The notes under the pieces: model-generated
What the model saw: only the letters and a program-made list of their open reading frames with translations
What the model was told of the DNA's origin: nothing
The model's database searches: none
DNA from: a virus
Virus record (IMG/VR): IMGVR_UViG_2531839362_000002
Coordinates: 93-64,092 of that record
Strand: one strand, 5' to 3'
DNA length: 64,000 nt
Shown: positions 1 through 18,715 of the stretch, in pieces
Layout of the letters: every line of letters begins with the position of its first letter
How positions within the stretch are numbered: position 1 is the stretch's first letter
Program-made: the position numbers and the translations under genes

Positions 1-649
1 ATTTGTCTTCCGTATTTTTCCTATTCATTTTAGAAATCCCGCCCAAAACAGGGACATCTAACAATTGCTCAATTCGTCGTTCCGATTTGATTCTATCATC
101 AAATGAATCCAATAAAAAAATAAAACCGATACTGAGCACCATACCTACAGAGAACGCAATTAGTATCGTCTTAAGGTGATTTATATTTATAGGCATCGAA
201 TGTTTTTGAACTGGGTCTTCTGGTAATATACTCACATTATTAAAATTTAGTATATTTGCTACTTCTTTCTTATAAACAGCCGCTGTCGTATTTGCAATTT
301 TATGTGCAAGTACAGGATCAATATCCACTACATTTATTCTCATAATCTGAGAGCCTTGTACACTTTCTATACTTATTTGTCCACTTAATGCACCTGCAGA
401 TCTGTTAATATTTAATTCAGCCGCTACTTTTTCTAATATTACAGGCTCATTTACCATCGCTTTTAATGTATTCATCGTTTCAGCATTAGCTTGAACAATA
501 ACCCTTGCTGAGGAGGCATACAAAGGTGTTTTCATATACATACTATACATCGCTCCTCCTACGGTTGTGAGAGTCGTAAACAACAGTAGTATCCATACCC
601 TTTTCCATATAACAGTAAATAGATTTTTTAAATTTATTTCCTTATTCAT
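1..649 (-). CDS. Capsular/exopolysaccharide chain-length determinant (YwqC/YveK/Wzz family), 3' end beyond the left window edge
   Basis: Hand translation from ATG 649: MNKEINLKNLFTVIWKRVWILLL...KTPLYASSARVIV...FLLDSFDDRIKSERRIEQLLDVPVLGGI. Two TM segments and the LD-DxxIKS-LxxPVLG signature. Not in the ORF track because it is truncated. Confidence 0.85.
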   Translation of the reverse strand, partial: MNKEINLKNLFTVIWKRVWILLLFTTLTTVGGAMYSMYMKTPLYASSARVIVQANAETMNTLKAMVNEPVILEKVAAELNINRSAGALSGQISIESVQGSQIMRINVVDIDPVLAHKIANTTAAVYKKEVANILNFNNVSILPEDPVQKHSMPININHLKTILIAFSVGMVLSIGFIFLLDSFDDRIKSERRIEQLLDVPVLGGISKMNRKNTEDK

Positions 650-878
650 TACTTCTCCCCCTCATTTAATACCAATGAGATTCCAGTTGACATTCCCATA
701 AAAAACAGAAATAAAAGTAATATGTTTTATTTTTTAAATATACAAACATTTCTAATTAATGCCATTTTAGTTCTTTATACAGAACGAGTCAACATAAATT
801 ATTCTTGTTAAATGACTTCTTAATTACACCTCATAAATTACGACAATATTCACTGCAATTCATTGTAGATAAATGACG

Positions 879-914
879 AAAAAGCCCTGATATCGTAGTA
901 TCAGGGCTTTTTTT
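879..914 (-). terminator. Intrinsic terminator, copy of the glnA terminator
   Basis: AAAAAGCCCTGATA-tcgtag-TATCAGGGCTTTTT; nearly identical to 8981-9016. Confidence 0.85.
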
Positions 915-915
915 C

Positions 916-975
916 TTAGTATAGAGATGTATTTCGATTACGTTCTCATTAGTGAACTTGCTTGCGGAATAAATA
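916..975 (-). pseudogene. glnA: Decayed duplicate of the glnA 3' end (old att junction)
   Basis: 48/60 nt identical to 9022-9081; reads YLFRKQVH**ERNRNTSLY* with internal stops. Confidence 0.75.
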
Positions 976-990
976 GTTTAACATGATGCT

Positions 991-1230
991 TTATTTCATA
1001 TCACCATGTCCCAAAATTTTTTGTTTAACATCTGATAAATCCTTCGCCAACGAACTAAACGCTTTTGCTTGTTCTTCAATGACTTGTTGGTTTTTTTCAA
1101 TAACTTTTTGATATTGTTCTTCGCGCTGTTCATTCTTTTTTTGTGTAGTAATAAGCATCCACACAAATAACGCTGCGAATGCTCCTTGTTGAATCATTGA
1201 ATTTAAGATCTGCTCTTCTATTATTCTCAC
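991..1230 (-). CDS. BhlA/UviB-family holin
   Basis: QQGAFAALFVWML-TTQKKNEQREEQYQ motif; paralog of 18485-18715. Confidence 0.88.
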   Translation of the reverse strand: MRIIEEQILNSMIQQGAFAALFVWMLITTQKKNEQREEQYQKVIEKNQQVIEEQAKAFSSLAKDLSDVKQKILGHGDMK

Positions 1231-1392
1231 TCCTTTTCTAATCTAAATAATTACTCATTCGAGTGACTCTAATCTTTTATCATCTTTTAACACCAATATG
1301 TCCTTATAGCTATCTCTGTCTTATAATTCTTGCTAAAGCTATCTTTTATGTCATAACTTTATAAAATACAAAAACAGTTACTACTGGAATTT

Positions 1393-2388
1393 TTATCGAA
1401 TATCTACAATGTCAAAGTGTTCCTCAGGTGTCCAACGATTCCCACCAATATCAATCCAGCCTTCTTTACGGAAGAATACTGTAAGGGGTTCTTTTGAAGT
1501 AATACGTCCTTTGTATGAGCCGTTAATTCCATCATAAAAGTTTACTCCATATCCTTCTGGGTATTTTGATATTGCTTTGAAAGGTCTCCAATAATAATGC
1601 TCCGCTTTTACCCAACGGCTTCTACCTAAATCTAACCACACATCATTATCTTCTCCCCAGTACGCATTCCAGTACAATACTTCTGCTGCTGTTGTAAAGT
1701 TCCCCTGATAGTTGCCATGTGGTCTATCATGATAGTTAATACCATAACCTTCCCAGTATATTGACTTTGCGAACCCAATCCCTTCTGGTTGCGGTGTACC
1801 AACAACGCCACCTTTACCTGTAAACCATTCAAGAGATTTTTCTCCGTTTAAGTAATTTAAATCTACATTACCAGATACGCCCGCAAGACTACCACTTTCC
1901 GTATACTGCCATAAATCACAGTTATAGGCTGGTTTATTTCCATAACGTGGAATCCAAAGGAAATCCGCATTCACAGTATTTAGTCCATAGCTTGTATACA
2001 TGTGATGTGATACATATAGACCTATTTTCCAGCCAGCTGCACGGCATGTATCAATAAATGCCTGTGAAGCTTTCGCTAAGTTAACTGCTCCACAACTTGC
2101 TAATGTATCATCTTCCACATCTAATACTAAAAATTTCGCTTCTTTGTCAGCGCGCGCCATAAAATCATTCGCTTCTACAATAGCATCCTGAACACTTACA
2201 TAACATCCATAAGCATAGTGTGCAAATGGGACACCATAGTCTTTACAACCTTGTACATACTCTTTATAACGTGTATCAATTGTCCTTGATCCATACTGTA
2301 CACGTATAATAGCAAGTTCAAGCTCTTTACTAGCTGCCGCCCAATTTATTGAACCATTGTGATGAGATAAATCTGCAATTTTCTTCAT
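1393..2388 (-). CDS. GH25 lysozyme (muramidase) endolysin with tandem SH3b-like C-terminal domain
   Basis: DLSHHNG, FLVLDVED, LWQYTESG, VDLN GH25 motifs. Confidence 0.88.
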   Translation of the reverse strand: MKKIADLSHHNGSINWAAASKELELAIIRVQYGSRTIDTRYKEYVQGCKDYGVPFAHYAYGCYVSVQDAIVEANDFMARADKEAKFLVLDVEDDTLASCGAVNLAKASQAFIDTCRAAGWKIGLYVSHHMYTSYGLNTVNADFLWIPRYGNKPAYNCDLWQYTESGSLAGVSGNVDLNYLNGEKSLEWFTGKGGVVGTPQPEGIGFAKSIYWEGYGINYHDRPHGNYQGNFTTAAEVLYWNAYWGEDNDVWLDLGRSRWVKAEHYYWRPFKAISKYPEGYGVNFYDGINGSYKGRITSKEPLTVFFRKEGWIDIGGNRWTPEEHFDIVDIR

Positions 2389-2426
2389 TTCTATTCCTCT
2401 TCTTTCCTATATCAAAATTTATGAAT

Positions 2427-2458
2427 AAAAAAACAACTCTTAATAGAGTTGTTTTTTT
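2427..2458 (-). terminator. Intrinsic terminator after the M23 lysin
   Basis: AAAAAAACAACTCT-taat-AGAGTTGTTTTTTT. Confidence 0.8.
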
Positions 2459-3278
2459 ATCGAATATCTACAATGTCAAAGTGTTCCTCAGGTGCCCAAC
2501 TATTCCCACCGATATCAATCCAGCCTTCTTTACGGAAGAATACTGTAAGAGGTTCTTTTGAAGTAATACGTCCTTTGTATGAGCCGTTAATTCCATCATA
2601 AAAGTTTACTCCATATCCTTCTGGATATTTTGATATTGCTTTGAAAGGTCTCCAATAATAATGCTCCGCTTTTACCCAACGGCTTCTACCTAAATCTAAC
2701 CACACATCATTATCTTCTCCCCAGTACGCACCCCAGTATAATACTTCTGCTGCTGTTGTAAAGCTTCCCTGATAGTTGCCATGTGGTCTATCATGATAGT
2801 TAATACCATAACCTTCCCAGTATATTGACTTTGCGAACCCAATTCCTTCTGGTTGCGGTGTACCAACAGCGCCACCTTTCCCCAAGTAGTCTAATGGATT
2901 CACAGCATTACTCTTATTAATATTCCAGCCGCCTTTATGCATTTCAAAATGTAAGTGCTGACCATAAGCCTGTCCCGTTTCTCCCATAACCCCAATTGTT
3001 TGTCCTTGTGTAACAGAATCGCCTTCTTTAACTGTACGAGAACCACTTCGCATGTGAGCGTATACAGTTTCCCATGTAACTCCATTAATATTATGAACAA
3101 TCATAATACATTCACCGTAACTAGATGAAAAATACGAACGACTAACTTTCCCACTAGCCGCTGCATAAATCGGATGATAGCCTGCTTCAGCAAGATCTAC
3201 CCCATGATGATCTGGTCTGTCACCTCTAAAACCACTTGTTACTCTCGTTGTATTTGTTGGATAAATAAATGTTGCCAT
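2457..3278 (-). CDS. M23-family peptidoglycan endopeptidase with shared C-terminal binding domain
   Basis: HHGVDL (HxxxD), YAHM, HLHFE (HxH) motifs. Confidence 0.9.
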   Translation of the reverse strand: MATFIYPTNTTRVTSGFRGDRPDHHGVDLAEAGYHPIYAAASGKVSRSYFSSSYGECIMIVHNINGVTWETVYAHMRSGSRTVKEGDSVTQGQTIGVMGETGQAYGQHLHFEMHKGGWNINKSNAVNPLDYLGKGGAVGTPQPEGIGFAKSIYWEGYGINYHDRPHGNYQGSFTTAAEVLYWGAYWGEDNDVWLDLGRSRWVKAEHYYWRPFKAISKYPEGYGVNFYDGINGSYKGRITSKEPLTVFFRKEGWIDIGGNSWAPEEHFDIVDIR

Positions 3279-3504
3279 ATGAATCTTCCTTTCTATTTTA
3301 TATTGTCTATATTTATTATTTTTAGATATATTGTAGGTTTTCCAACCTTAAAACGAACAAAACAGAGAATTTCTCCATTGTTATCTACCATCAAAATATT
3401 ATTCTTTTAACCATAAGTTAAATATTATTAAGATTACCAAAGACTCTTGAAAAACTATTATTTTATATGACTAATTCTTCTTTCCTACATTACAGTTTAC
3501 GTAT

Positions 3505-3535
3505 AAAAAACAACTCTTGGTAGAGTTGTTTTTTT
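3505..3535 (-). terminator. Intrinsic terminator after the lysozyme-like lysin
   Basis: AAAAAACAACTCT-tggt-AGAGTTGTTTTTTT; duplicate of 2427-2458. Confidence 0.8.
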
Positions 3536-4502
3536 ATCGAATATCTACAATATCAAAGTGTTCCTCAGGTGCCCAACTATTCCCACCAATATCAATCCAG
3601 CCTTCTTTACGGAAGAATACTGTAAGGGGTTCTTTTGAAGTGATACGGCCTTTATATGAACCGTTAATTCCATCGTAAAAGTTTACTCCATATCCTTCTG
3701 GGTATTTTGATATTGCTTTGAAAGGTCTCCAATAATAATGCTCCGCTTTTACCCAACGGCTTCTACCTAAATCTAACCACACATCATTATCTTCTCCCCA
3801 GTACGCACCCCAGTATAATACTTCTGCTGCTGTTGTAAAGTTTCCCTGATAGTTGCCATGTGGTCTATCATGATAGTTAATACCATAGCCTTCCCAGTAT
3901 ATTGACTTCGCGAACCCAATTCCTTCTGGTTGTGGAACACCGCCTGCATTAAAATCTACATATTGTTTAACAATTTCAGCGTAGAAAAAATTACCGCCAT
4001 TTTTATATCGATAACCACCATTGTACGCAACTGCGATAGGATGACTATATTTAACCATAGCACCAGTTGTATTTCCAAGTGATGGCGCAACAACCGTCTT
4101 AGAATACAGATCTGCCACCGGTAATGAATGTTGTTTATTGTTAGAAGCTAACCAGCGAAGATAAGCTCGTCCAAAATTATATGATTGAACAATGGCACTT
4201 AAATCTGTAATACCATTTTTCTTTGCATCATCAAAAGCTCCTTTTAAATGCTTTACTCCGTAATACACTGAATCTTTAGGATTCTTGATTGTATTCATTG
4301 CCCATCCTTGTGATTCACTTGACTGCATAATATCCGGTGTTGTTTCAGAGTTCCCTCCACTTTCCACCATAATAATTCCAAGTACGTAAGGAACTAATTC
4401 CGAAACACCTTGTGCAGCACATTCACTTTCTACCATTGATTGCCAACGTAACACTTGTTGTGGCAGATTCTTTGTTTTAACTGAAGCAGCTAATATACTC
4501 AT
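3534..4502 (-). CDS. Lysozyme-like (CwlT N-terminal type) hydrolase with shared C-terminal binding domain
   Basis: IIMVESGG, DIMQSSES, QSYNFG motifs. Confidence 0.82.
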   Translation of the reverse strand: MSILAASVKTKNLPQQVLRWQSMVESECAAQGVSELVPYVLGIIMVESGGNSETTPDIMQSSESQGWAMNTIKNPKDSVYYGVKHLKGAFDDAKKNGITDLSAIVQSYNFGRAYLRWLASNNKQHSLPVADLYSKTVVAPSLGNTTGAMVKYSHPIAVAYNGGYRYKNGGNFFYAEIVKQYVDFNAGGVPQPEGIGFAKSIYWEGYGINYHDRPHGNYQGNFTTAAEVLYWGAYWGEDNDVWLDLGRSRWVKAEHYYWRPFKAISKYPEGYGVNFYDGINGSYKGRITSKEPLTVFFRKEGWIDIGGNSWAPEEHFDIVDIR

Positions 4503-4740
4503 TACTAAACATCTCCTTATTTTCCTATTATTTTTGTCTAAAAAACTACTACCTCACTACATATGGTTATCAGCCAAATACCCATTAATCTATAAAATTA
4601 CTTCATGTTGCTCACCTTCTTTCACAACAAAAAGAGCAACCATAAAAATAGTTGCTCTTTCGTCGAAATCTTATATTACTACTATAAATCACTTTTTCAA
4701 TACTTTCTGTACACCGCATGTACCCTACAAAAAGGTAACA

Positions 4741-5139
4741 TTAAAATCCATCTAAAAACTTGACAATTTTTCTTATTTCAGCGTGTTTGCGTCGAATATA
4801 GCCTGTACTATAATGCAATTCAAATGCTATTTGTTCTAAGGTCATTCCATCAACATATTTCATTTTAAGTATTTGATGATCCAGTCCTGCAAACTTATTC
4901 ATCAAAAGCTTTAAATCAAATTCTTCATTCATCTTATGAGCTAATTCATATTCAATTGCTTCAATCCGGTCTTCTACCTTAGCCCCTTCCGACTCAGCGG
5001 TTAATCGTACATTTTGCAAGTCCCCACTAGTCCAGCGCTTTAATTCCGCTTTTGATTTGTCTAAGTTGTATTCTAAATAAGCGATTTCTTCTTCTAACTT
5101 CTTATAATCTTTGAGCCATTCAAACATCTGACGATTCAC
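4741..5139 (-). CDS. Phage late transcriptional activator (RinA/ArpU/DUF1492-like, sigma70 r4 HTH)
   Basis: C-terminal ILKMKYVDGMTLEQIAFELHYSTGYIRRKH HTH; sits directly upstream of the lysins. Confidence 0.75.
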   Translation of the reverse strand: MNRQMFEWLKDYKKLEEEIAYLEYNLDKSKAELKRWTSGDLQNVRLTAESEGAKVEDRIEAIEYELAHKMNEEFDLKLLMNKFAGLDHQILKMKYVDGMTLEQIAFELHYSTGYIRRKHAEIRKIVKFLDGF

Positions 5140-5524
5140 CTACTTCCTTTTTGTAAATTTAAATACTACTAATTTAATAAAACTTATATCCTTATTGGCT
5201 TTTTCAATCTTTGTTATTTGTAGAACATCTTTCATTTAATAAACACAACCATTTCCTACTATTTATAAATTCATTTTCTCTTTAGAATTCCAATACTGTA
5301 ATTAACTCCTGAATAGATAATGAAAAACACCCTTCGAACAATCCTTGTAAGACATTAATAATCAAACAGAAATCACAAATTGTTAATACTTGCTCCAAAC
5401 ATTCACGAATATCTTCAAAGATGTTTAATATACATCAAACATTTTTGAAGAATATAATCATTTAATCTTAGCATTAAGATAATACATTTTTAAACACCAA
5501 AGTCGTCGACCATTTTATCTTTTC

Positions 5525-6394
5525 TTAAGACTTATATTTATTTAATACCTCTTTTAATCTCTCACGCTCTTCCTCAGTGTACTGCGCGGGTTTTCTTTCC
5601 ACTTCTTGATTCGTGTGTTCGTCATCTTTATATAACCAATCTGGGACAAGCTCTTTTCTAGTCGAATAATTTCTACCTGATTCATTAAATTTCTTATTCT
5701 TACTCATTTTGAAACGTCTATCTAGCGCGGTCACATCAGCAAATGTTTTAACTTTTTGCTCCTTCCAATTACTCAATATAGCTTTAACGTAGTTCCATCT
5801 TGGTGCATTCTCATCAATAGCTTTATTAGTTGCATACTGAATTAACTCACTACTAAACAAATCACAAAAATCGCCTAACTCCGTAAATGCAATTTCACTT
5901 AACGGAATGCCTCTCTCTTTTAAAAAATTATAATTTTTTTTAAACTCTCTACCGAATAATATATGAGATTCTAATTTATCCTTATCATCATGATTAGTAT
6001 TTTGTATTTTAGTATTTAGTTTATTGATATTTAGTAGTGTCGGATTTTCCTCATATGGCTTTCCTACATCTTGCTTTTCCACTTGTGGAATTCTCTTTTG
6101 TGGTGTTTCATAAATTTCCGTATCCCATCTTTTAATTTTTTTTGTATGTTCATCACGAACGGGATAACGCTTTACATACCCTAATTCTTTTAGTTCTTTA
6201 AAACCTGTACGTAATGAATCTTCTCCATCCTTTGCATGTTGAGCTAATTCACTAATATGAAAAGTCCAATCATCTGGTAGTGTAAGTGTATAAGCCAAAA
6301 TTCCTTTTGCCTTCCATGACAACCTTTTATCTTTTAAACCAGTATTATTTATGACGGAATAATTACTATCTTTTTTCACTCGAATAATCCCCAT
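5525..6394 (-). CDS. Phage replication initiator (N-terminal wHTH + DnaD/DnaB_2 domain)
   Basis: MGIIRVKKDSNY...LSWKAKGILAY...GYVKR; ELIQYA...WNYVKAILSNW; ATG 6394 follows a GAGGTG RBS. Confidence 0.85.
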   Translation of the reverse strand: MGIIRVKKDSNYSVINNTGLKDKRLSWKAKGILAYTLTLPDDWTFHISELAQHAKDGEDSLRTGFKELKELGYVKRYPVRDEHTKKIKRWDTEIYETPQKRIPQVEKQDVGKPYEENPTLLNINKLNTKIQNTNHDDKDKLESHILFGREFKKNYNFLKERGIPLSEIAFTELGDFCDLFSSELIQYATNKAIDENAPRWNYVKAILSNWKEQKVKTFADVTALDRRFKMSKNKKFNESGRNYSTRKELVPDWLYKDDEHTNQEVERKPAQYTEEERERLKEVLNKYKS

Positions 6395-6542
6395 ACTAGT
6401 CACCTCATAAATTCTCAAAATCGATATTCAATGTTATACTTATTCAGAGATATTTTTTTATAAAATCCGCTGCAACGGATTCTTTTTTTATGTACTCATT
6501 TAAATCCATCATGCTATCCATATTTTTTCTCCTAAATCTTTC

Positions 6543-6737
6543 TTATTCCTCAAATTCAACATCAACTTGAATTTCGATATTCATAGAAATTTCTTGTGTT
6601 ATACGAATAACATTTGGACTTATTCCTTTTTGGATAAGCTTTTTAATCTGCTGTTTTGCGGCATCTTTTGTTTTAAATTCACTGACAGTTGGTAGACCTA
6701 CTAAATTGCCAGTAATCACTAAAATTTTCCGTTGCAT
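6543..6737 (-). CDS. Hypothetical phage protein (64 aa)
   Basis: AGGAGG RBS; in operon between rha and rep. Confidence 0.6.
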   Translation of the reverse strand: MQRKILVITGNLVGLPTVSEFKTKDAAKQQIKKLIQKGISPNVIRITQEISMNIEIQVDVEFEE

Positions 6738-6748
6738 GTTTCTTCCTC

Positions 6749-7506
6749 CTATTGAAATTCTGCCATATTTATTTGTGAGTTTTTAACTTTAATTTCTTCA
6801 TTTAAAACTGTTGGAATTGAATATTCTTCATTAATTATTTGTATAGCTCTATCCAAATGATTACGTTTAATAGCTTTATAACTATTCACACCAAACTCTC
6901 GATGTAATTGACTATAAATATCGCTATACAGCTTTTTTCTAAGACTGTTATCCTGATAAGAATTCGAATTTTTACCCCCCAATAACAAAAAACCTAACCT
7001 TTTTACAGCCTTTGTTATTTCGTCACATTCAATGGCGTATAGCGGAGCGTTTTCTCGTAACCCCTTCACTTCAGTCTTAATCTCTTGTATTTCTTGCGTA
7101 TGTCCTTCTAAAGCTGCAAACGTTAACTTTAGGACTCCCATAGCATCCTTTGGTATTTTGTTCTGACTTTGTATATACCTCCTCATCCGTTTGAACTCTT
7201 CAATAAATTTAATTTTCGTTTGCACAGCTTCTCTAGAGTTATACCCCATAGCAAGTAATACGAAAGCTTCTTCAGTTAAATTGTATTTAGACATGCGCTC
7301 ACCCTGTGAATTGATATAAGTGGACTCGTAAGAATTTCCTTGCGCAAATTCTTCACCCGCATATACAATATTTTTACAATATCCTCCAAAACGTAGTAAT
7401 GATCTTTCCCGAACGTTTTCGCAATTACCAAACTATCCGTTACTACCTCACCATTAACTTCAAATACTAGTTCACTATGTACTAATACTTCGGTTAAGTG
7501 ATCCAT
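6749..7506 (-). pseudogene. Rha-family/ORF6C antirepressor, frameshifted
   Basis: The 7276-7536 and 6749-7294 ORFs join if one A is added to the A5 run at 7371-7375, giving ...DIVKNIVYAGEEFAQGNSYESTYINSQGERMSKYNLTEEAF; homologous to 60655-61362. Confidence 0.8.
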
Positions 7507-7692
7507 TCTGATCTCCTCCTCATCTTTAATTTTCAATTACCTTCCTTACATTTACATACCCTTGCATCAAGCGTTATTATTTACCAATTTTCTTGGACAT
7601 TAACCAATCCTCAACATTCAAATTATGTGATTTAATATAAAATATTTCCTTAACTCTCCAATAAAGCTTTGCTTAATAATTTCGTTATTGAG

Positions 7693-7956
7693 TTAAAAAT
7701 TCAATATTTTATGTTCCAAAAAAGTAGGGTTTCTTTTCACACTACAATTCGGCTTGTTTTCTTCAAATTCAAAAAGATATTCTAAATTATGATCAGGAAA
7801 AAAGGTTTCCTTAATTTCAAGAGCCTCATCATAATAAAAACGAAATTTACCATTAATTTTGTCGCACACTGTTGCGTAGCGAAGATTCAGATGCGAAGAG
7901 ATTTGGGTAATTACAATCCCTTTTCTCGCCATCTCTGCACGCAGATTCGGATACAT
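7693..7956 (-). CDS. Cro-like XRE regulator
   Basis: NLRAEMARKGIVITQISSHLNLRYATVCDKING; divergent from the repressor. Confidence 0.8.
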   Translation of the reverse strand: MYPNLRAEMARKGIVITQISSHLNLRYATVCDKINGKFRFYYDEALEIKETFFPDHNLEYLFEFEENKPNCSVKRNPTFLEHKILNF

Positions 7957-7977
7957 TAGCTCACCTCCTTAATTTTT

Positions 7978-8129
7978 ATACGAAATTGCGTTTATTTCCA
8001 CTTTAATATATACGCATTTCCGTACAAAGTCAATGATATAATAGGAAAATACACTCAATATCGTACAAAACACTATTTACTTATAAATTCAGCTAAGTTA
8101 TGATAGTAACAAACATACTCAATATCGTA
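7978..8129. promoter_or_regulatory. Divergent cro/repressor control region with four TACG-N6-CGTA-like operators
   Basis: tacgaaattgcgtt, tacgcatttccgta, cactcaatatcgta and tactcaatatcgta; ACTCAATATCGTA repeated exactly at 8053 and 8117. Confidence 0.6.
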
Positions 8130-8146
8130 TACATTTTATAAGAAGG

Positions 8147-8818
8147 ATGGTGAAGTTTATGGAAAAAGCAAAGATTGTAACACGCTTAATAAAAGAAGCT
8201 GGATATAGCAAAAGAGCTTTCGCAGAAAAAATCGGGCTCCCTCCCACAACACTGCAATCAATGTTATCAAGAGGAATCGGTAAAGCATCTGTTGATAATG
8301 TAATAAAAGTTTGTAAGGGATTAGGGATCACTACTGATGATTTAGAGGTGCTCACAACTAAAGGGGATAATACAGTTAAAGAAGAAGTTTCTATTTATGA
8401 AACCATTCAAAACGACCAATCAAACATTATCCATATCCCAATCATTGGTTCTGTCGCAGCCGGTACACCTATATTCGCCGAAGAAAATATCGAGGGTTAT
8501 TTACCAATGCTAAGTACATTTTTAAATAAGCGTAAAAAGTATTTTTATCTTACTGTAAAAGGCACTAGCATGAATCTCGAATTCCCTGATGGTTCTTATG
8601 TTCTGGTAGAAGAAACTCCTTATGTTGAGAATGGGCAAATTGCTGTTGTAAAAGTCAATGGTTATGATGCAACTGTGAAAAAAATCTCAAAATCTGGAAG
8701 CATCATTACTTTAATACCATTGAGTAATCATCCTATCCATGAACCACAGACTTACGACCTTTCAGCTGAAGATGTAAAAATCATTGGTCGCGTTGTACAA
8801 GCAGTAAAAAATTATTAA
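8147..8818 (+). CDS. CI/LexA-type repressor with S24 autopeptidase domain
   Basis: N-terminal HTH; IGSVAAGTP cleavage site; VKGTSM (Ser) and ATVKK (Lys) catalytic motifs. Confidence 0.9.
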   Translation: MVKFMEKAKIVTRLIKEAGYSKRAFAEKIGLPPTTLQSMLSRGIGKASVDNVIKVCKGLGITTDDLEVLTTKGDNTVKEEVSIYETIQNDQSNIIHIPIIGSVAAGTPIFAEENIEGYLPMLSTFLNKRKKYFYLTVKGTSMNLEFPDGSYVLVEETPYVENGQIAVVKVNGYDATVKKISKSGSIITLIPLSNHPIHEPQTYDLSAEDVKIIGRVVQAVKNY

Positions 8819-8980
8819 ATTTTTAGCGCTAGCAATTTATTGAAAAAAGAACCGATTCTAATAAAGGTTTATTGAAATTACCATCCCTATTATTAAGATA
8901 CTCTTATACTGAAGATTTTTAGTGGCTGTTTTGTGGTTTCTTTTCATTTTGCGCCACTTGAAGTTAACTTTATAAAAAAG

Positions 8981-9016
8981 AAAAAAGCCCTGATACCGTA
9001 GTATCAGGGCTTTTTT
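8981..9016 (-). terminator. glnA intrinsic terminator
   Basis: AAAAAAGCCCTGATAC-cgta-GTATCAGGGCTTTTTT. Confidence 0.88.
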
Positions 9017-9021
9017 CTCTC

Positions 9022-9082
9022 TTAGTATAGAGACATATATTGATCGCGTTCCCATTGGTGAACTTGTGTGCGGAATATATCC
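9022..9082 (-). other. glnA: Displaced 3' end of glutamine synthetase gene; left att junction of the large prophage
   Basis: Translates DIFRTQVHQWERDQYMSLY*, recognisable as the Bacillus GlnA C-terminus; upstream sequence diverges from glnA. Confidence 0.85.
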
Positions 9083-9179
9083 TCTGGATTCATCAAGTTT
9101 TAAATTATGCCAAAAAAGTTGATTTATCAAGGTTTTATAAAAGTGATGTTTCATAGTGATTCATCACTTTTTTTAATTT

Positions 9180-9210
9180 TGTGGGTGAATTGTGGGTGGT
9201 TTTGTGGGTG
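9180..9210 (+). repeat. Integrase arm-type sites (TGTGGGTG x3)
   Basis: TGTGGGTG at 9180, 9191 and 9203, about 100 bp inside the att junction. Confidence 0.65.
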
Positions 9211-9345: not shown

Positions 9346-11154
9346 TCATTTTTCCGAGTTACTTTTTAATATTTCCCACTTAACTTTTCTTTTTAAAGAT
9401 TTCATGAAATCCTCTTTTGTAACATATAACAATCCATAACTTGAATTGACTTTATTTATTTTTTCAAATAAATAATTTAAGTATTCACATCCATCTAAAG
9501 CTTTACTAATTTCAATATACTTATTATGGGATTCAGTATTTTTCACTGCCAATTTATTCTCTTTAGCAAAAACCTGCTGTCCATAAATAAGTATTGCCAT
9601 TTTGTAATAACAATAGTCAAATGTATCTGAATTAAAGTTAAAATCATTCCTTTGTATATCAGTTTCTTCCGTTGTTTTTTGTTCATTTTCAGTAAAGTCT
9701 AATACTACATTAGCATTAGTTTTACTGAAATTAGCTAATGAAATCCTTATATCAAGACTATTAAATCTAGTTACTAGGAATTTAATTAAAAAACCTGCAC
9801 ATGCATGATGCCCTAATTCTATACTTTTTAATATTGCTCTAAGTATTAAATGAACATCTTTTTGAACAATCTTTCTTTTTACAATTCCAGCAACAATTAG
9901 TTGTATTGGAGAAATTTCATCCTTATTATTATCTTGTTCCTCTTCTTTGGTTACTAGATATACAATATTACATAAAAATTTAATATCTCCACTTTCTACT
10001 GCTCTTATAATTAAATTTTGATATACTTTTTCAATTTTTTCTTTCTCCATTTGATTTAAAGCTTTTAATAGAGGTGAAAACTTATGTATATCATCTAATT
10101 TAAAATTCGATGTTAAATGGTATAATTCGATTCTATAGCATTGATGTAAAACTATATGATCAAACTTAGGATACAATGATGTTGTTAAGATATTTAGAGC
10201 TTCTTGTGCCTTTATTATTTTATTTTGATTAAATAAATCTACTATCAACTTCACTTGATTACTAAGAATAGTTTGATATAGTCGTTCATAAATTTCAATT
10301 TTCTCATCCTGAATATAAACATCTTCAATCTCATCCAAATTAAAAAAATCCGGATTATTAAATATAATCAGTGTTTTCTCAAGATTTTTCAAATCTCTAT
10401 CAAACATTGAGTTCATATTTTTTTCATTCATGTACTTTAAAATTTGATATGTACTTTCAATATGAGCATGAGCTCTTTCTTCCTGCTTCGTTATTAATCT
10501 AGACACCTGATTTGCTTCTAAACCATTCCAAATAGACATTAGTTTTTTTAAATTTCTAATACTATCATTAGTCAAATTGATTGTGATTTTAGATAGATTT
10601 ATTATATTAATATTTTGGAATGAATTTATTAAAAGTATTGCTAATAGATAAATAGAAATTATAACAAGCATATACCAAATCAAGAGTAATCCATTATAAA
10701 CTATCACTAATGAATGAAGCATCATCCCTGTACCAAAAGTTAATACAGAAAATACAATAAACATATTTAATTGTATTTTCTCCCTCATACTTCCTATGTT
10801 AGAAGATGCTATTTGTTTACTTTCTCTATACGAAAAAGTATATATGGTAATTGTAACTGGTAATATAAACCTCAATACATCAGTTATATTTTTCCCTAGT
10901 TGATATATTTTAGAATCTATGTCGTGATTAGCTCTCAAACCAGGGACACCAATACTCACAATAAGAACTAGAGCTAAACTTAAAAAAATAGCTATAAGAC
11001 TATATTTCACTACTGTCCATATATTTAATAATTTATGAACACATTCTCTTTTCCGAATAAATTCCTCATTCTCTAATTGTTGATTCGCATTTCGAGAAAT
11101 TTTTTTAGGTGCTAAATTCGCTTTCAATTCCAAAATAAAAATCACTCTCCACAA
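9346..11154 (-). CDS. Uncharacterised ~600-aa membrane protein (about 4 N-terminal TM helices, helical cytoplasmic region)
   Basis: Long AT-rich ORF with hydrophobic segments; exact start uncertain (TTG 11154 or 11133). Confidence 0.75.
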   Translation of the reverse strand: MWRVIFILELKANLAPKKISRNANQQLENEEFIRKRECVHKLLNIWTVVKYSLIAIFLSLALVLIVSIGVPGLRANHDIDSKIYQLGKNITDVLRFILPVTITIYTFSYRESKQIASSNIGSMREKIQLNMFIVFSVLTFGTGMMLHSLVIVYNGLLLIWYMLVIISIYLLAILLINSFQNINIINLSKITINLTNDSIRNLKKLMSIWNGLEANQVSRLITKQEERAHAHIESTYQILKYMNEKNMNSMFDRDLKNLEKTLIIFNNPDFFNLDEIEDVYIQDEKIEIYERLYQTILSNQVKLIVDLFNQNKIIKAQEALNILTTSLYPKFDHIVLHQCYRIELYHLTSNFKLDDIHKFSPLLKALNQMEKEKIEKVYQNLIIRAVESGDIKFLCNIVYLVTKEEEQDNNKDEISPIQLIVAGIVKRKIVQKDVHLILRAILKSIELGHHACAGFLIKFLVTRFNSLDIRISLANFSKTNANVVLDFTENEQKTTEETDIQRNDFNFNSDTFDYCYYKMAILIYGQQVFAKENKLAVKNTESHNKYIEISKALDGCEYLNYLFEKINKVNSSYGLLYVTKEDFMKSLKRKVKWEILKSNSEK

Positions 11155-11182
11155 AAATAACAGGCAAATTCCGCCTGTTATT
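11153..11182 (-). terminator. Hairpin terminator/attenuator between panA and the 602-aa gene
   Basis: AATAACAGGC-N7-GCCTGTTATT followed by T's on the minus strand. Confidence 0.65.
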
Positions 11183-11220
11183 AAGGTTATATCTCTTTAA
11201 AATACTTTACCATAGTCTCT

Positions 11221-11721
11221 TTAGAAATTATTTATTCCCTGCAACATATCTTTGAAATATTCTTCCATAGCCTCTTTTGAAATTATTTCCTTCCCTAACT
11301 GGTTAGGTAGTAAATTTTCTCTTGCTTTTAGCCAAGGCATTTCTTGATGAGTAAGTTCTTCTAAAAACTTACCATCATAACCACCATAAGCATCCCATAC
11401 TATATCTAATGTTTCTTTAGCTTTTTTATTTTCCAAGAAAATTTCAGGCTTTACAACTGGTGGTATTTCAAAATATTTATGATTACTATAAAGATCGTAA
11501 AGATTCGGACAAACTGGACCATGCACCCAAGCCTGAATATCTTCATCAAATAATTTCTCACCGTTGTTTAATGCTAAATGCCAGCCTTGTGCATAATACA
11601 CTAATTTTTGTAGTTTCAAATGAGTAATTGATTGCTCTGTGTTAGGTTTACTTAAACTTAAAAAATAATCTGCTACATCAAACACGTCGACTTTTTTTGT
11701 TTTTTGCGCTACAGCTGTCAT
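11221..11721 (-). CDS. Panacea-domain (DUF4065/SocA/GepA) antitoxin
   Basis: ITHLKLQKLVYYAQG, IQAWVHGPV, LEELTHQEMPW signatures. Confidence 0.9.
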   Translation of the reverse strand: MTAVAQKTKKVDVFDVADYFLSLSKPNTEQSITHLKLQKLVYYAQGWHLALNNGEKLFDEDIQAWVHGPVCPNLYDLYSNHKYFEIPPVVKPEIFLENKKAKETLDIVWDAYGGYDGKFLEELTHQEMPWLKARENLLPNQLGKEIISKEAMEEYFKDMLQGINNF

Positions 11722-14092: not shown

Positions 14093-14127
14093 AAAGAAGG
14101 GTTCCACAGATGCTGGAATCCTTCTTT
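14093..14127. terminator. Bidirectional terminator
   Basis: AAAGAAGGGTTCCA...TGGAATCCTTCTTT between convergent genes. Confidence 0.7.
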
Positions 14128-14131
14128 CATC

Positions 14132-14465
14132 TTACTTCACATACACATAGGCTTCATTTGTAGTTATATAGTATGTTTTACCTTTGCTATTATATACTTT
14201 ATATTGTGATGATCCATTGACAGTTACTTTTTCATCGATTGTAACACCTAGTCCTGCATCTAAAGTACCAGCCACGTCTTTATCATGCCAAGATGGAGAT
14301 TCATAGAAACGTAGGTTGTCCACTTTAGTAACAACACGCTTCCCTACAATAGAGGAATCTACTGTGCTTTTCTTACTAAACTTCACATAAGATGGATTGT
14401 TCTTAATCCATTGTTCACCGCCAAGATTTAACCAACCACCCTTTTCAGCCCATACAGCATAATAT
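14132..14465 (-). pseudogene. 5'-truncated endolysin remnant (C-terminal SH3-like domains)
   Basis: AVWAEKGGWLNLGGEQWIKNNPSYVKF...LRFYESPSWHDKDVAGTLDAG; highly similar to 17442-17760; no catalytic domain. Confidence 0.8.
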
Positions 14466-14723: not shown

Positions 14724-14999
14724 ATGGGAAAATTCCAAAGTAATTTACAAACAGCAACACAAATTGCTACGAAAATGGGATCAGCTTCTGACAGGGTTCA
14801 AAGTGCAACAAGTCGTTCTATAACAAAGGCGACGCGTACAACACTATCTGTTAACTCCAAAGCACAGGAAGCGAACCAACAAGTTTTAGATTTGACGAAA
14901 CAATTTTCTGTAGCCTTTCAACAAGCGGTTGATAATATTCATTCGGTAGCTAACGAGTTTGAGAGAATGGATAAAGAACTTCAAAATATTTTTCGCTAA
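14724..14999 (+). CDS. WXG100-like T7SS effector partner (TIGR04197-like)
   Basis: 91-aa helical protein ending IHSVANEFERMDKEL (FxxxD export motif); upstream of an LXG toxin. Confidence 0.75.
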   Translation: MGKFQSNLQTATQIATKMGSASDRVQSATSRSITKATRTTLSVNSKAQEANQQVLDLTKQFSVAFQQAVDNIHSVANEFERMDKELQNIFR

Positions 15000-15039
15000 T
15001 GTGATAACCTACGTAAAGTAAAACGGTAGGAGGAAAAAG

Positions 15040-15402
15040 ATGAGTCAAGACATTGAAAAACAAATGAATCAATTAAATCAAAAATTACGAAGTGTATTTG
15101 AAGAACAGAATCGGAATCAATCTGCGATTCAAACACAGGAACAAGTAGAAGAGGATTTTCATGTATGGAAAAATCAAAACCATCGTTTGTTTGACCGTAT
15201 TTTAGGAACTTGGCATAGAGATAGAGAAATGTCATTGTTTTTTATGAATATGAGTCAAGATGCACAATATATTGAGCGAAAACTTACTTTCGAATTGGAA
15301 AATCAAAAAGAAACATTACTTAAGGAAAAACGAAATCTTAGTGACTTAGAAAATGACCTTTACTATCAAAAACAGAATCTAGCAAAGGAGGTCAATTCAT
15401 GA
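15040..15402 (+). CDS. LXG-associated helical partner (DUF3958-like)
   Basis: 120-aa coiled-coil protein directly upstream of the LXG gene. Confidence 0.7.
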   Translation: MSQDIEKQMNQLNQKLRSVFEEQNRNQSAIQTQEQVEEDFHVWKNQNHRLFDRILGTWHRDREMSLFFMNMSQDAQYIERKLTFELENQKETLLKEKRNLSDLENDLYYQKQNLAKEVNS

Positions 15403-17081
15403 GTTTGAATATGTATCTAGGGGAAGTACATACGCAAACACAAAGTATGAACGCTGTATGTACCGCTACCATTCAAGGTATGGAACAAGCTATTCAGTCG
15501 ATTGATGCTTTTGCAATGGATACTGTTCTACAAGGACAAACTTATAGCAGTGCAAAAGCATTCTTTGCACAAACCTTTCGTCCATTAGCACAAGGAATCA
15601 TTTACTTGTGTGAAGAACTAATCCGTCAGAATGATGCCTTTCCAAGTCAATTTCAATCACAGGTAGCTTCAACAGATGTCATCGAACAAGAAATACTAGA
15701 ACAAATTCGAGGGATTGACCGAATGAGAGCAGGTGTTGAAGGGATTAGTAATGTCCTTCCAGCTATGCAAGCGATGATGGGTATTTTTGATATGATGAAA
15801 CGGAAACTGCAAGAAAAGTTAGAACACCTGCATGAATTCAATTATACTTCTAGTAGTAATTATGATACAGCACTCCAACTAGCCACTAGTATTGCTACGG
15901 GGCTTGCAGAAGTACAAAGTGGAAAAGGTTTTAGTCCTACAAGTGGTACATTTAGTACACAAGGGTTGAATATGGAATGGGCAACGTCTATTCAAGCGAT
16001 AGAAGAAGATAGGGCACGTAAAGCGGACAATTCGATTAAAGATGGAGAAATGTGCGGTAGGCTAGAGGAGAAATCTCCGATTAGAAAGGCTTGGGACGAT
16101 AAGGTAGACGATGTAGTTAAAATGTTCGAAACAGTAAAAAAGATGTGGAATGGTACTGTAATCGGAACAGGGAAAGCTGTTGAAGATGAAATCAAGTCCA
16201 TGGAAGCTTTAAGTAATATGGATATAGGAACTTTTATTAATGTTACATATGCGATTTTACATTTGGATGAAACGACAAAAAATATGTGGCATGCATTTTC
16301 AAGTACTGTGAAACGAGATATTATAGATGGAGATGCAGAGAGCATTACACAATGGACTACTTATGGATTAACCCAAATAGGCATCGGTCTAATTCTCGAT
16401 AGGGGACTAGGTAGAGCAGGCCTCGTCACAAAAGGAGCAGGTGGAGCAAGTACATTAGCTAAAGGCGTAACGCTAGTAAAAGAATTGAAGCAAGTATCGG
16501 ATATTTTACAACCTGTTAAGAAAGATGTTTCTTATGCTTTCTCTGGCGGAAATAATATACGCTCTAAATTTGATATACCTGATTTTAAACAAGCTGAAGA
16601 AAAGCTATCAACTCATCAGTTTGCTAATTCTGGTGGAAATACTAATACTAATGCTATAAAGCCAGGAGATACTAGTCCGTTAGCTCCAGGAGGAGGATTA
16701 ATTGCCCATGAGGCAAAACCTGGCCAAAGAAGAGGTGGTCACTTAATCAAAAAACACGTAGAAAAAACGGATGCAGAACTATTGCAAAGATTACAAAGTG
16801 ACCCTAGAATACCAGCATCATCATCTTTCACTAATAGGGCTATAGCCGAGAGAGTAGCTAATGAAGTTTTAAGTAATCCACAAAATATAGCAAAAATAAA
16901 TAGGTGGTTAAACAATCCTAATAGCAGACCAACCTTACCGCTAAGATATAACGGTAATAGTATACTTGGACGATATGTCGAAAGAGGATCAAATGGTGCT
17001 TTAGATGTGGAAAATGCTGTGATTGTTTTGAAAAAAGATAACCAAGGAAGTTTTATTATTACAGGATATCCAGAAAAGTAG
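15399..17081 (+). CDS. T7SS LXG polymorphic toxin with C-terminal bacterial RNase A-like (CdiA-CT type) domain
   Basis: N-terminal LQGQTYSSAKAFF LXG motif; C-terminal GGHLIKKHV...ASSSFTN...FIITGYP. Confidence 0.82.
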   Translation: MSLNMYLGEVHTQTQSMNAVCTATIQGMEQAIQSIDAFAMDTVLQGQTYSSAKAFFAQTFRPLAQGIIYLCEELIRQNDAFPSQFQSQVASTDVIEQEILEQIRGIDRMRAGVEGISNVLPAMQAMMGIFDMMKRKLQEKLEHLHEFNYTSSSNYDTALQLATSIATGLAEVQSGKGFSPTSGTFSTQGLNMEWATSIQAIEEDRARKADNSIKDGEMCGRLEEKSPIRKAWDDKVDDVVKMFETVKKMWNGTVIGTGKAVEDEIKSMEALSNMDIGTFINVTYAILHLDETTKNMWHAFSSTVKRDIIDGDAESITQWTTYGLTQIGIGLILDRGLGRAGLVTKGAGGASTLAKGVTLVKELKQVSDILQPVKKDVSYAFSGGNNIRSKFDIPDFKQAEEKLSTHQFANSGGNTNTNAIKPGDTSPLAPGGGLIAHEAKPGQRRGGHLIKKHVEKTDAELLQRLQSDPRIPASSSFTNRAIAERVANEVLSNPQNIAKINRWLNNPNSRPTLPLRYNGNSILGRYVERGSNGALDVENAVIVLKKDNQGSFIITGYPEK

Positions 17082-17093
17082 AGGAGAATTTGT

Positions 17094-17396
17094 ATGGAGA
17101 ATAAATATAGCCATTATGAAGAATTAGGTGATTTCTTAGCAGGAACATTTCACCAAGATATTGAATCACCTGAGGAAGCTCTTAATGAATTTATAATGGA
17201 AGTTACTAAAATATGTATCGAAAATACCAAAAATGATATACTTTTGTTTTTAAACAGTAATCTAACTGATAGTGAAAAAGAGGAATTTATTAAATATAAT
17301 GCTTACATTTATTTCCCTGCATTAAACTTAACAGCTATAGAATGGTTACAGCAGACCCTTGAAATACTAAAAGAAGCTATAAAAAGTAAAGAATAA
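17094..17396 (+). CDS. Cognate immunity protein (CdiI_2-like)
   Basis: LGDFLAGTFHQDI motif; immediately follows the toxin. Confidence 0.78.
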   Translation: MENKYSHYEELGDFLAGTFHQDIESPEEALNEFIMEVTKICIENTKNDILLFLNSNLTDSEKEEFIKYNAYIYFPALNLTAIEWLQQTLEILKEAIKSKE

Positions 17397-17405: not shown

Positions 17406-17437
17406 AAAGCCGACTCAGCTTGATATGAGTCGGCTTT
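17406..17437. terminator. Bidirectional terminator
   Basis: AAAGCCGACTCA-N8-TGAGTCGGCTTT. Confidence 0.85.
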
Positions 17438-17441
17438 ACTA

Positions 17442-18488
17442 TTACTTCACACTCACATACGCATCACTAGCCGTAATGTAGTACTTATGCCCCTTCGAAT
17501 TATAAACACGATACTGCGGATACCCATTGACATTTACCTTTGCGTCGATTGTAAATCCTACTCCTGCATCTAAAGTACCAGCAACATCTTTATCCTGCCA
17601 AGATGGAGAATCATAGAAACGTAGGTTATTAACTTTAGAAACAACACGTTTGCCTTCCACAGATAAAGATTCTTCTTTATAGCGAATGTATGATGTATCG
17701 TTATAAATCCACTGATTTCCTCCAAGGTTTAACCAGTTTCCTACTTTACCCCAAACTTTATATGATTCACCTTTTTGTAGCTTGCGGATGACATTATTGC
17801 TTGTGGATGGTCCAGACCGAAGGTTTACATTTTGACCATCAATATAAGCCACATCACTTGCTTCTGTTACACTTCCAGATGGTTCTTGTGGTTTTGGTTT
17901 AACCGATACAGAATCACCATTATATGCCTTTAAAACATCGTTTCTAAATTGGGATTCTGATACACCATGACTCTTTAGATATTGTATTGGGTCTTCATGA
18001 TCTGTACCACCTAATTTGTAAGTAATATCTTTATGAGTCCATAGCCCAACACTTGGATGGATATTTCTATCTTTTAATATTTCTGCAAGCAACTTTACAT
18101 ATCTTTCATACGATTTTTTGAATTTAATAGAGTCACTAGTTTCAGATAGCTCTACATGTACAAATCTAGCATTTGCCGCTGGACCTGCACCCCATGCACG
18201 ATATTTAGTAGATGCAATCTGAATGTTTTCATCCCAATCCGTTGCATAATGCACAAAAGCATTTCTCCATGTTCTAGCTTCATAATTTCTAATATTGATA
18301 GCAGGTGCTTCTGGTGTCGCTGTGGAATGCGCTACTACCCCCTCATATGCACCGACACCATATCTATATCCTTGCTTTGGTAAATCTGGAATAATCATTT
18401 CTCTATCTGCAAAAACACTTCCTACAGATGTTAATAAAATAATAGAAGCCGTTGCAACTGAACTTAATACTTTAATAGATTTTTTCAT
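17442..18488 (-). CDS. Endolysin, N-acetylmuramoyl-L-alanine amidase (Amidase_2) with SH3 domains and an apparent signal peptide
   Basis: VAHSTATP, AFVH, HVELSE, THKDIT...DHEDP; PlyL/PlyG-like. Confidence 0.92.
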   Translation of the reverse strand: MKKSIKVLSSVATASIILLTSVGSVFADREMIIPDLPKQGYRYGVGAYEGVVAHSTATPEAPAINIRNYEARTWRNAFVHYATDWDENIQIASTKYRAWGAGPAANARFVHVELSETSDSIKFKKSYERYVKLLAEILKDRNIHPSVGLWTHKDITYKLGGTDHEDPIQYLKSHGVSESQFRNDVLKAYNGDSVSVKPKPQEPSGSVTEASDVAYIDGQNVNLRSGPSTSNNVIRKLQKGESYKVWGKVGNWLNLGGNQWIYNDTSYIRYKEESLSVEGKRVVSKVNNLRFYDSPSWQDKDVAGTLDAGVGFTIDAKVNVNGYPQYRVYNSKGHKYYITASDAYVSVK

Positions 18489-18715
18489 TTTACATCACCA
18501 TTCCCCATAATTTTTTGTTTGATATCTGATACATCATTTACTAATGAACTAAAGGCTTTTGCTTGTTCTTCAATTACACCCTGGTTCTTTTCAATGACCT
18601 TTTGATATTGCTCTTCACGCTGTTCATTCTTTTTTTGCGTAGTAAAAAGCATCCACACGAATAATGCTGCGAATGCTCCCTGTTGCATCATTGAATTGAA
18701 AATTGCATCTTCCAT
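18485..18715 (-). CDS. BhlA-family holin
   Basis: QQGAFAALFVWMLFTTQKKNEQRE; overlaps the endolysin start. Confidence 0.88.
   Translation of the reverse strand: MEDAIFNSMMQQGAFAALFVWMLFTTQKKNEQREEQYQKVIEKNQGVIEEQAKAFSSLVNDVSDIKQKIMGNGDVK

Follow-up and report, generated by a model that had tools for sequence, protein, structure and literature searches.

What is a stretch of prophage DNA for when it retains a repressor switch, a replication gene, a late regulator and lysis genes, and has none of the genes that would make a virus particle? This question is raised by a block at positions 975–8971 of a 64,000-nucleotide (nt) stretch of viral DNA, IMG/VR record IMGVR_UViG_2531839362_000002, positions 93 to 64,092 (hereafter 'the window'), which IMG/VR holds as a 'provirus'. 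An earlier note, made from the sequence alone, had taken the block for a headless, tailless prophage relic that was domesticated as a DNA damage-triggered lysis device. The analysis reported here suggests, with a probability of roughly 0.6, that the block belongs to a conserved family of repressor-controlled lysis cassettes in the Bacillus cereus group, which derive from prophages and lack virion genes.

The block, a phage remainder of 8 kb in a chromosome of the B. cereus group, lies between two direct repeats and, according to the listing of open reading frames (ORFs) and scans with Pfam, PHROG and NCBIfam, contains a switch, a rep gene, a late regulator, three hydrolases and a holin (Table 1). 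The genes from the cro-like gene through the holin are on the minus strand and run from right to left; the S24 repressor alone is divergent, on the plus strand. Every part of the inventory given in the earlier note (S24 repressor, operators, cro, rep, late activator, lysozyme-like, M23 and GH25 hydrolases, and holin) was recovered at its place by family matches and motifs. All of the genes are intact except rha, also as claimed: here a 1-nt deletion at 7377/7378 was seen relative to the intact genes of 252–254 amino acids (aa) in three other species (loci L014, L016 and L018), and the identical frameshift, which is species-specific, is found in G068, a genome of the same species as the window, and in two IMG/VR records. 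No integrase, packaging, head or tail genes were detected between the repeats by the ORF listing, Pfam or PHROG, and an intact temperate prophage is thereby ruled out for the block. The claim that integrase and virion genes are gone is thus correct for these 8 kb and incorrect for the neighbourhood, where a complete prophage is present. The repeats are 106-nt copies in direct orientation, 81–89% identical and decayed, in agreement with the description of a decayed attachment (att) copy. In G068, where the cassette is 99–100% identical, complete glnA continues from the right repeat and is followed by glnR and a methionine gamma-lyase gene; to the left is the wzz gene that also occupies window 2–649. 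Because the right repeat of G068 is the genuine glnA end, the repeats represent the last 19 codons of glnA together with its terminator. In the window strain, later insertions separate the right repeat from glnA; they comprise the 602-aa protein with its antitoxin, the amidase fragment, the LXG/RNase toxin genes and the complete prophage (Table 1).

The same arrangement recurs in other genomes. The lysozyme-like protein was searched against 71 species-representative genomes of the genus, after which the loci were fetched; it matched 15 of the 71, over its full length or over the catalytic domain. Regulator-bearing loci, 15 in number, were taken from 13 of the matching genomes, from two plasmid-collection loci and from the window, and in all 15 the regulator is positioned 234–239 bp upstream of the lysozyme-like gene with no gene in between. 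The cassette is located at the glnA 3' end in six genomes, namely G068, G001 (B. albus), G011, G067, G038 and G010. The other loci carry the same core, which in addition matched 70 megaplasmid records, including megaplasmids of widely used B. thuringiensis strains; the full core order is DnaD, regulator, lysozyme-like, M23, third lysin and holins. Three megaplasmids that were inspected carry a helix-turn-helix (HTH) repressor and an ImmA/IrrE protease, i.e., an ImmR/ImmA switch, in place of the S24 repressor. Six IMG/VR proviruses hold the cassette, with a glnA fragment beside it in four, and since all six matches are cassettes near the edge of a provirus call, an intact 'parent' phage was not found in IMG/VR. 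Virion genes (packaging, head, tail) were absent from every cassette copy examined. A separate observation concerns G005 (B. wiedmannii), where L020:3841–8694 holds two partial tandem cassettes and illustrates both decay and duplication. In one of them the regulator, the lysozyme-like gene and GH25 are intact; the other retains a fragment of the regulator and an M23 gene, along with a lysozyme-like gene that is interrupted by two TGA stops.

All three hydrolases of the cassette share a C-terminal domain of ~135 aa (96–97% identical at the nucleotide level) that matches the solved binding domain 6ILU (E~1e-27); this Protein Data Bank (PDB) entry is titled only 'Lysin', and we take it to be the binding domain of LysPBC5, an endolysin of a B. 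cereus phage. The lysozyme-like lysin matched 4HPE, a Tn916-like hydrolase (E=2e-30), and 6ILU (E=1e-26), and its best phage matches were phi29-like 'morphogenesis proteins', through the catalytic part only. The GH25 lysin matched PlyB (E=3e-55) and the LambdaBa04 GH25 enzyme (E~1e-55), with its binding domain matching 6ILU at E=4e-27, and is an ordinary endolysin of the PlyB/LambdaBa04 type. When 50,697 phage records were searched at the protein level, none was found to join the lysozyme-like domain to the binding domain of the cassette, no match covered 80% of the query, and no phage source was found for the lysozyme-like or M23 lysins; megablast of the same records gave matches to the holin and to a 150-nt operator stretch only. 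M23 and Lysozyme_like catalytic domains are likewise unmentioned in a 2024 review of Bacillus phage endolysin architectures. The holin and the wall hydrolases, each of which has a catalytic and a binding domain, are encoded in one operon, and the lysins have no evident signal peptide as judged by eye.

Comparison of the binding domains showed that those of paralogous lysins are 93–99% identical (nt) within a locus, whereas the median between loci is 77%. In G067, G038 and G065 every lysin of the locus carries a substitute binding domain with only about 40% identity, the exchange having affected all of them together. Such concerted evolution speaks for selection of the enzymes to act jointly on one wall ligand. 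In G011, just 3' of the lysozyme-like stop codon, L014:7296–7469 contains an isolated piece of a different binding domain (its last ~58 residues, 48% identical), apparently left behind by an earlier exchange of binding domains. A bolder account would make the cassette part of a horizontally spreading, stand-alone 'autolysis cassette' family, carried at glnA and on megaplasmids, in which a damage-sensing switch, a rep gene, a phage late activator and two to four lysins are under selection and catalytic domains of tail and conjugation hydrolases have been set on one gene-converted binding domain; its function would be an altruistic lysis that releases public goods, DNA or vesicles, or that aborts a phage by way of a shared late promoter. 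We consider this account tentative, and the odds lean against it in its full form.

The earlier note had proposed a survey of conservation and of the ratio of nonsynonymous to synonymous substitution rates (dN/dS) across the B. cereus group. Besides the recurrence of the design, this survey yielded dN/dS values, computed pairwise by the Nei–Gojobori method against the other loci with a pairwise aligner, of 0.04–0.37 in nearly all comparisons. For the lysins the range was 0.07–0.37 (GH25 0.09–0.14; M23 0.07–0.37), for the late regulator 0.04–0.15, for the S24 repressor 0.06–0.16, for the BhlA holin 0.07–0.12 and, in diverged comparisons, for the DnaD-like rep gene 0.23–0.34. Exceptions occurred at very low divergence, where cro and DnaD gave a dN/dS of about 0.7 against B. 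albus. The synonymous divergence (dS) of the cassette was 0.36–0.65 against G011 and G067, and reached 0.8–1.2 for the M23 and lysozyme-like genes against G067, where the binding domain was swapped. These cassette values are comparable to those of the flanking core genes (0.20–0.25 for glnA and 0.52–0.68 for the methionine gamma-lyase gene). To judge from these alignments, the virion-less design has been kept open-reading and constrained over between-species divergence, and neutral decay is therefore not compatible with the data, since many stops would be expected at such distances. The earlier note had named a patchy distribution with neutral decay as the pattern that would speak against it; the distribution is indeed patchy, with decay in two of the copies, but neutral decay is not what the family shows.

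These results make it unlikely that the block is an ordinary decaying prophage remnant without function, whose intact look derives from a recent deletion or from ongoing recombination with live phages. The junction and gene set are intact in six chromosomal and at least seven inspected plasmid-type loci, at the dS of 0.36–0.65 given above and with a dN/dS of about 0.1; two independent switch types (S24 and ImmR/ImmA) are joined to one late module; the lysozyme-like and M23 lysins have no phage source that we could find; and the element is expressed, as described below. Such a remnant would nevertheless be at home at a glnA hot spot that holds a relic, an amidase fragment and an intact prophage in tandem, and it would account for the frameshift in rha, for the decayed copies in G005 and G045, for an early-region dS under the core dS in two species, and for the label 'defective prophage' applied in 2006. 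What stands of the domesticated lysis device of the earlier note is that the block is not decaying at random, a conclusion which draws on recurrence, dN/dS, the late promoter, transcription and protein detection; its induction through RecA, the lysis of the cell, an amplification in situ by rep and any benefit to the host, be it release of extracellular DNA, killing of neighbours or abortive infection, would be further inferences.

We further analyzed the region between the early genes and the lysins. The late regulator scored just under the Pfam cut-offs for both Sigma70_r4 (23.6 bits, cut-off 24.1) and DUF1492 (20.7 bits, cut-off 21.5). Proteins of this sort are often annotated as ArpU-like, but the NCBIfam scan of the regulator gave no ArpU match; with that family name unconfirmed, the protein is described here by its domain and position. 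It shares 68–71% identity with its positional counterparts in phages Gamma, Cherry, Fah and BMBtp15. In BMBtp15 and Gamma the homologue comes last in the early region; in BMBtp15 it is followed by two small genes and, after these, by the terS/terminase genes. Both of these phages have a matching promoter and hairpin 3' of the homologue, and in the cassettes the first 115 nt 3' of the regulator gene are almost invariant in 15 of 15 loci, with conservation far above that of synonymous sites. By these criteria the cassette keeps a genuine phage late promoter, now reading straight into the lysins, and the late regulator would be the protein that activates it. The promoter motif has no second copy within the window. 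In the late leader after the hairpin, window 4598–4618 contains a ribosome-binding site and a two-codon mini-ORF (ATG AAG TAA) that are kept in most of the 15 loci.

The kinship of this regulator with those of Gamma-type phages (68–71% identity), together with the conserved promoter, bears on the possibility that selection acts on the block as a mobile element, a selfish or phage-associated module, and not on its host. Such a module could be a satellite-like or 'helper' unit excised by the integrases of co-resident glnA phages, or could be switched on by Gamma/W-beta-type phages via the homologous regulator, with abortive early lysis or donation of lysis genes as the outcome. It would also explain why the block shares its flanking att repeats with the neighbouring prophages, why it keeps a repressor, cro, rep and late promoter as satellites do, why its early half shows traces of recent horizontal transfer and why it occurs on plasmids as well as chromosomes. 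We nonetheless hold it to be improbable, because Pfam and PHROG revealed no gene for an integrase, an excisionase, a terminase small subunit or capsid redirection, the RNA-seq runs examined contained no excision joints, and the inspected plasmid copies have no flank matching the chromosomal loci (att-like repeats were not sought there). Moreover, the co-resident prophage lacks both the late promoter and any homologue of the late regulator, for which reason cross-talk between it and the cassette was rejected. A satellite in the strict sense, i.e., one like the phage-inducible chromosomal islands (PICIs), was rejected as well, given that integrase, terS and capsid-remodelling genes are missing by Pfam and PHROG; the repressor, cro and rep gene are all that PICI-like satellites have in common with the cassette.

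Turning to the switch, the translated S24 repressor contains a LexA-type Ala-Gly site, VAAG (about residues 104–105), a serine motif, GTSM, and a lysine motif, TVKK, and the protein is 95–98% identical across species. It matches the lexA-like model TIGR00498 (E=6e-25) under the equivalog cut-off, and is therefore not LexA itself. With these motifs in place, self-cleavage stimulated by RecA would be expected. The divergent region between the repressor and cro has one promoter-like site per strand, at 8033–8005(−) and 8076–8104(+), and the operator-like repeats around them may function as operators. Direct control by host LexA is unsupported, in that the switch region has no Bacillus LexA (Cheo) boxes and matches are fewer than expected by chance.

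Taken together, these features suggest how the cassette might operate. The S24 repressor would bind the repeated operators and hold off the leftward early operon. Upon DNA damage, RecA would become active and the repressor would cut itself at the Ala-Gly site, so that the early operon, i.e., cro, (rha), orf64, the DnaD-like rep and the sigma-region-4-like regulator, could be transcribed. The regulator would then turn on the late promoter, which would lead directly to the three lysins and the BhlA holin instead of to terminase, head and tail genes. Having no evident signal peptide, the lysins would build up in the cytoplasm until the holin opens the membrane, at which point two muramidases and an endopeptidase would cut different wall bonds and the induced cell would lyse. 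As to purpose, we suggest with low confidence, and by analogy to the pyocin and PBSX lysis cassettes, that lysis of a damaged or induced subpopulation would release DNA, vesicles and enzymes.

Evidence for expression comes from RNA-seq contigs of two organisms and two studies, which cover the cassette at a depth of 4–114 in data set X1 and of 0–264 by bin in X4, compared with 0.4–0.7 over the wzz flank in X1; contig depth is an unreliable gauge of expression level. Essentially no cassette reads are present in the raw-read RNA runs X21 and X23, whose reads fall on the glnA 3' end. At window 8801–9200 the RNA contig depth is very high (695–1795), and reads and contigs pass from 9082 into unlike sequence; this depth is that of the highly expressed glnA 3' end in strains without the later insertions.

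Published data are also available for one of the copies. The genome G011 is very probably that of B. cereus ATCC 14579, since gene order and product names at its locus match the published tags BC3694 (amidase), BC3695 (holin), BC3696 (XhlA), BC3698 (M23), BC3699 (lysozyme-like), BC3702 (antirepressor) and BC3705 (glnA). The BC3698 and BC3699 proteins have been detected in published ATCC 14579 data, and BC3698 was reported in the exoproteome of this strain (PMC5526929). In a comparison of the wild type with sigB and bc1009 mutants at 42°C, BC3694–BC3699 shift together with phBC6A51 genes, by a log2 of +1.7 to +3.0, and during heat shock of the wild type (in the table taken to be S2B) BC3694–3697, BC3699, BC3702 and BC3703 decrease in parallel with pBClin15 genes (PMC9912610 supplement). 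That the lysins are mainly ordinary autolysins or exo-enzymes of growing cells (wall turnover, cell separation, motility), made from a late promoter independent of a leftover switch, is the least probable of the alternatives, for although BC3698 occurs in the exoproteome of growing cultures, the protein and mRNA levels of BC3698/BC3699 depend on SigB/Bc1009 and co-vary with flagellar genes, and late transcripts do not trail early ones in uninduced cells, the lysins combine the lack of an evident signal peptide with a place in a holin operon, the repressor and regulator are the most constrained genes (dN/dS 0.04–0.16), which is not expected of a leftover switch, and lysis of a few induced cells explains presence in the exoproteome equally well.

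Several observations weigh against a maintained, repressor-controlled lysis cassette. Late transcripts appear no less abundant than early ones in the uninduced RNA data, and the response of the late genes to SigB and Bc1009 means that control may not be a simple SOS switch; the ATCC 14579 data themselves are linked to G011 by gene order and product names, with no named record. The distribution among the 71 species genomes is patchy (15), rha is broken in the species of the window, the second copy in G005 is degenerate with its two TGA stops, and the copy in G045 is shortened and is without DnaD and M23. The early half has a dS of only 0.05–0.10 against G038 and G001, well under the core dS, and must therefore have moved or recombined recently; purifying selection, measured here in pairwise and not tree-based comparisons, could partly reflect gene flow from live phages. 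The signal peptides, too, were assessed only by inspection.

The closest relative of the cassette has been in the literature for some time. 'Defective prophage phi6A53' is the name under which a 2006 paper records an element here in ATCC 14579, placing it at the LambdaBa01 locus (PMC1475869), and the junction primer of that paper resembles the terminator inside the repeat found here. phi6A53 (BC3694–BC3704, next to glnA BC3705) appears to be orthologous to the window cassette: it occupies the same glnA 3' end and has the same order of S24 repressor, cro, antirepressor, DnaD, regulator, lysozyme-like, M23 and holins, with names and numbering that agree with the supplement of PMC9912610. The two differ in the third lysin, which in phi6A53 is an amidase with a different binding domain and in the window is a GH25 enzyme with the shared domain; in the holins, which are XhlA plus a holin in the former and of the BhlA type in the latter; and in rha, which is intact in phi6A53 and broken in the window. 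A literature search by locus tag and topic found no functional study of the element, phi6A53 being listed there only as defective.

Phage holin and endolysin genes that have been kept by the host are found in the lysis cassette of the pyocin cluster of Pseudomonas aeruginosa (explosive cell lysis, PMC4834629) and in the PBSX lysis genes of B. subtilis (PMC5589764). Under genotoxic stress, both are reported to bring about lysis or wall damage in a subpopulation, with release of DNA and vesicles. These cassettes still serve clusters of tail or particle genes and have one endolysin, whereas the window cassette has no particle genes, brings its own CI-type switch, rep and late activator, and carries three lysins on one binding domain. 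According to two further papers, the lysis module of the defective prophage DLP12 in Escherichia coli (PMC7918800) and type 10 secretion, in which a holin and endolysin release toxins (PMC10847048), consist of remnant or repurposed lysis genes that are kept without a virion and serve envelope remodelling or the release of cargo by specialised cells. Both of these differ from the present case in being Gram-negative systems with spanins; beside the cassette, no dedicated cargo gene was found in the loci inspected.

The tail lysin gp13 of phage phi29 combines a lysozyme-like domain with an M23 domain. Its lysozyme-like catalytic domain, and that of CwlT and Tn916-like hydrolases such as PDB entry 4HPE, is of the same type as the one in the cassette, where by contrast the lysozyme-like and M23 enzymes are separate proteins, each on an endolysin-type wall-binding domain, in a holin operon and without evident signal peptide. 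Relative to LysPBC5 and PlyB (GH25 plus a tandem SH3b-like binding domain), the GH25 lysin of the cassette is a normal member of its type; what differs is that the same binding domain is also present on two catalytic domains that are not those of endolysins, and is kept identical among them.

Lysis modules of phage origin that hosts retain are thus already known, and retained phage lysis genes drive explosive lysis, vesicle formation and toxin release, in known cases that are tied to tailocins or particles or to single enzymes. Distinctive here are the complete loss of particle genes, the possession of a switch, rep and activator of its own, and a payload of several lysins on one co-evolving binding domain. 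If the interpretation as a virion-less lysis cassette is true, this would be a minimal self-contained lysis device made up of sensor, amplifier, activator and multi-enzyme payload. If functional, it would be relevant to autolysis in fermentation, to extracellular DNA in biofilms and to cross-talk between prophages. Three synergistic lysins aimed by a single binding domain would then be a natural example of interest to enzybiotic design, and the concerted evolution of the binding domains would amount to a clean natural experiment showing how the specificity of lysins follows the host wall. With a copy (BC3694–BC3704) in a strain that is very probably B. cereus ATCC 14579, the predictions can be tested directly in a standard laboratory strain.

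Table 1. Coordinates of the cassette and of neighbouring features in the window.
Feature	Position	Strand	Evidence or remark
Left att-like direct repeat	869–974	.	decayed copy of glnA 3' end; bidirectional terminator hairpin 879–912 (terminator scan); aligns with glnA end of G068
BhlA-family holin, 79 aa	991–1230	−	one N-terminal membrane helix; Pfam Holin_BhlA E=6.6e-9; PHROG 2429 E=2e-28
GH25 muramidase with shared wall-binding domain, 331 aa	1393–2388	−	Pfam GH25 E=1.3e-21
Terminator-like hairpin between M23 and GH25 genes	2424–2461	−	17-bp stem; predicted by terminator scan
M23 metallo-endopeptidase with shared wall-binding domain, 273 aa	2457–3278	−	Pfam Peptidase_M23 E=4.4e-26; HxxxD and HxH motifs present
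Lysozyme-like muramidase (PF13702, CwlT / phi29 gp13 type) with shared wall-binding domain, 322 aa	3534–4502	−	Pfam E=4.3e-65
Late promoter and GC-rich hairpin with T-run	4633–4700	−	TTGAAA 4700–4695, N16, TAATAT 4678–4673; hairpin 4658–4633
Small sigma-70 region-4-like late regulator, 132 aa	4741–5139	−	PHROG 36 'transcriptional regulator' E=5e-28
DnaD-domain replication initiator/helicase-loader-like protein (rep), N-terminal HTH	5525–6418	−	Pfam DnaB_2 E=1.7e-12; PHROG 186 E=3e-54; TIGR01446
64-aa phage ORF, no assigned role	6543–6737	−	PHROG 14961 E=4e-35; kept in five chromosomal loci
rha/ORF6C antirepressor-like gene, broken	6749–7536	−	overlapping ORFs 7276–7536 and 6749–7294; Pfam ORF6C and Phage_pRha on two ORFs
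cro-like HTH protein, 87 aa	7693–7956	−	first gene of leftward early operon; weak PHROG 3 repressor match (E=1.6e-4), plus position and sequence
Divergent promoter region, 190 bp	7957–8146	.	repeated operator-like motifs 8011–8024, 8053–8065, 8115–8130
CI/LexA-type HTH and S24 repressor, 223 aa	8147–8818	+	Pfam HTH_3 residues 14–66, Peptidase_S24 98–217, E=2.3e-30
Right att-like repeat	8972–9080	.	glnA 3'-end fragment: last 19 codons and terminator
602-aa protein and SocA/Panacea-domain antitoxin (11221–11721)	9346–11721		inserted between cassette and glnA; 602-aa protein without family match
Amidase fragment, 230 nt	14124–14353		77% identical to 3' end of intact prophage amidase gene (17434–17663)
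Type VII secretion system LXG toxin with CdiA-CT RNase A domain, DUF3958 partner and CdiI_2 immunity gene	14724–17396		
Complete prophage	~17.4–64 kb, to window end	−	8.6 kb from block; separate element, glnA fragment in between
Prophage Amidase_2+SH3_3 endolysin	17442–18488		
Prophage tail protein, 1494 aa	19251–23735		
Prophage HTH repressor	61698–62213		
Prophage tyrosine integrase	62890–63999		runs off the window

The surroundings of the block show that glnA is a hot spot for prophages, with the cassette, the amidase fragment and the intact prophage in tandem in the window. The similarity of the amidase fragment to the intact prophage gene suggests that a third generation of prophage, by now nearly erased, lay between the cassette and the intact one. 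Homologues of the 602-aa/Panacea pair that was inserted next to the cassette, 75–79% identical, adjoin the cassette in another IMG/VR provirus (L031). A pair related to the LXG toxin and CdiI immunity gene is present in G038 as well, between the lysis end of the cassette and wzz. Lastly, the holin region of the complete prophage (18466–18598) resembles that of the cassette (972–1104), at 78%.

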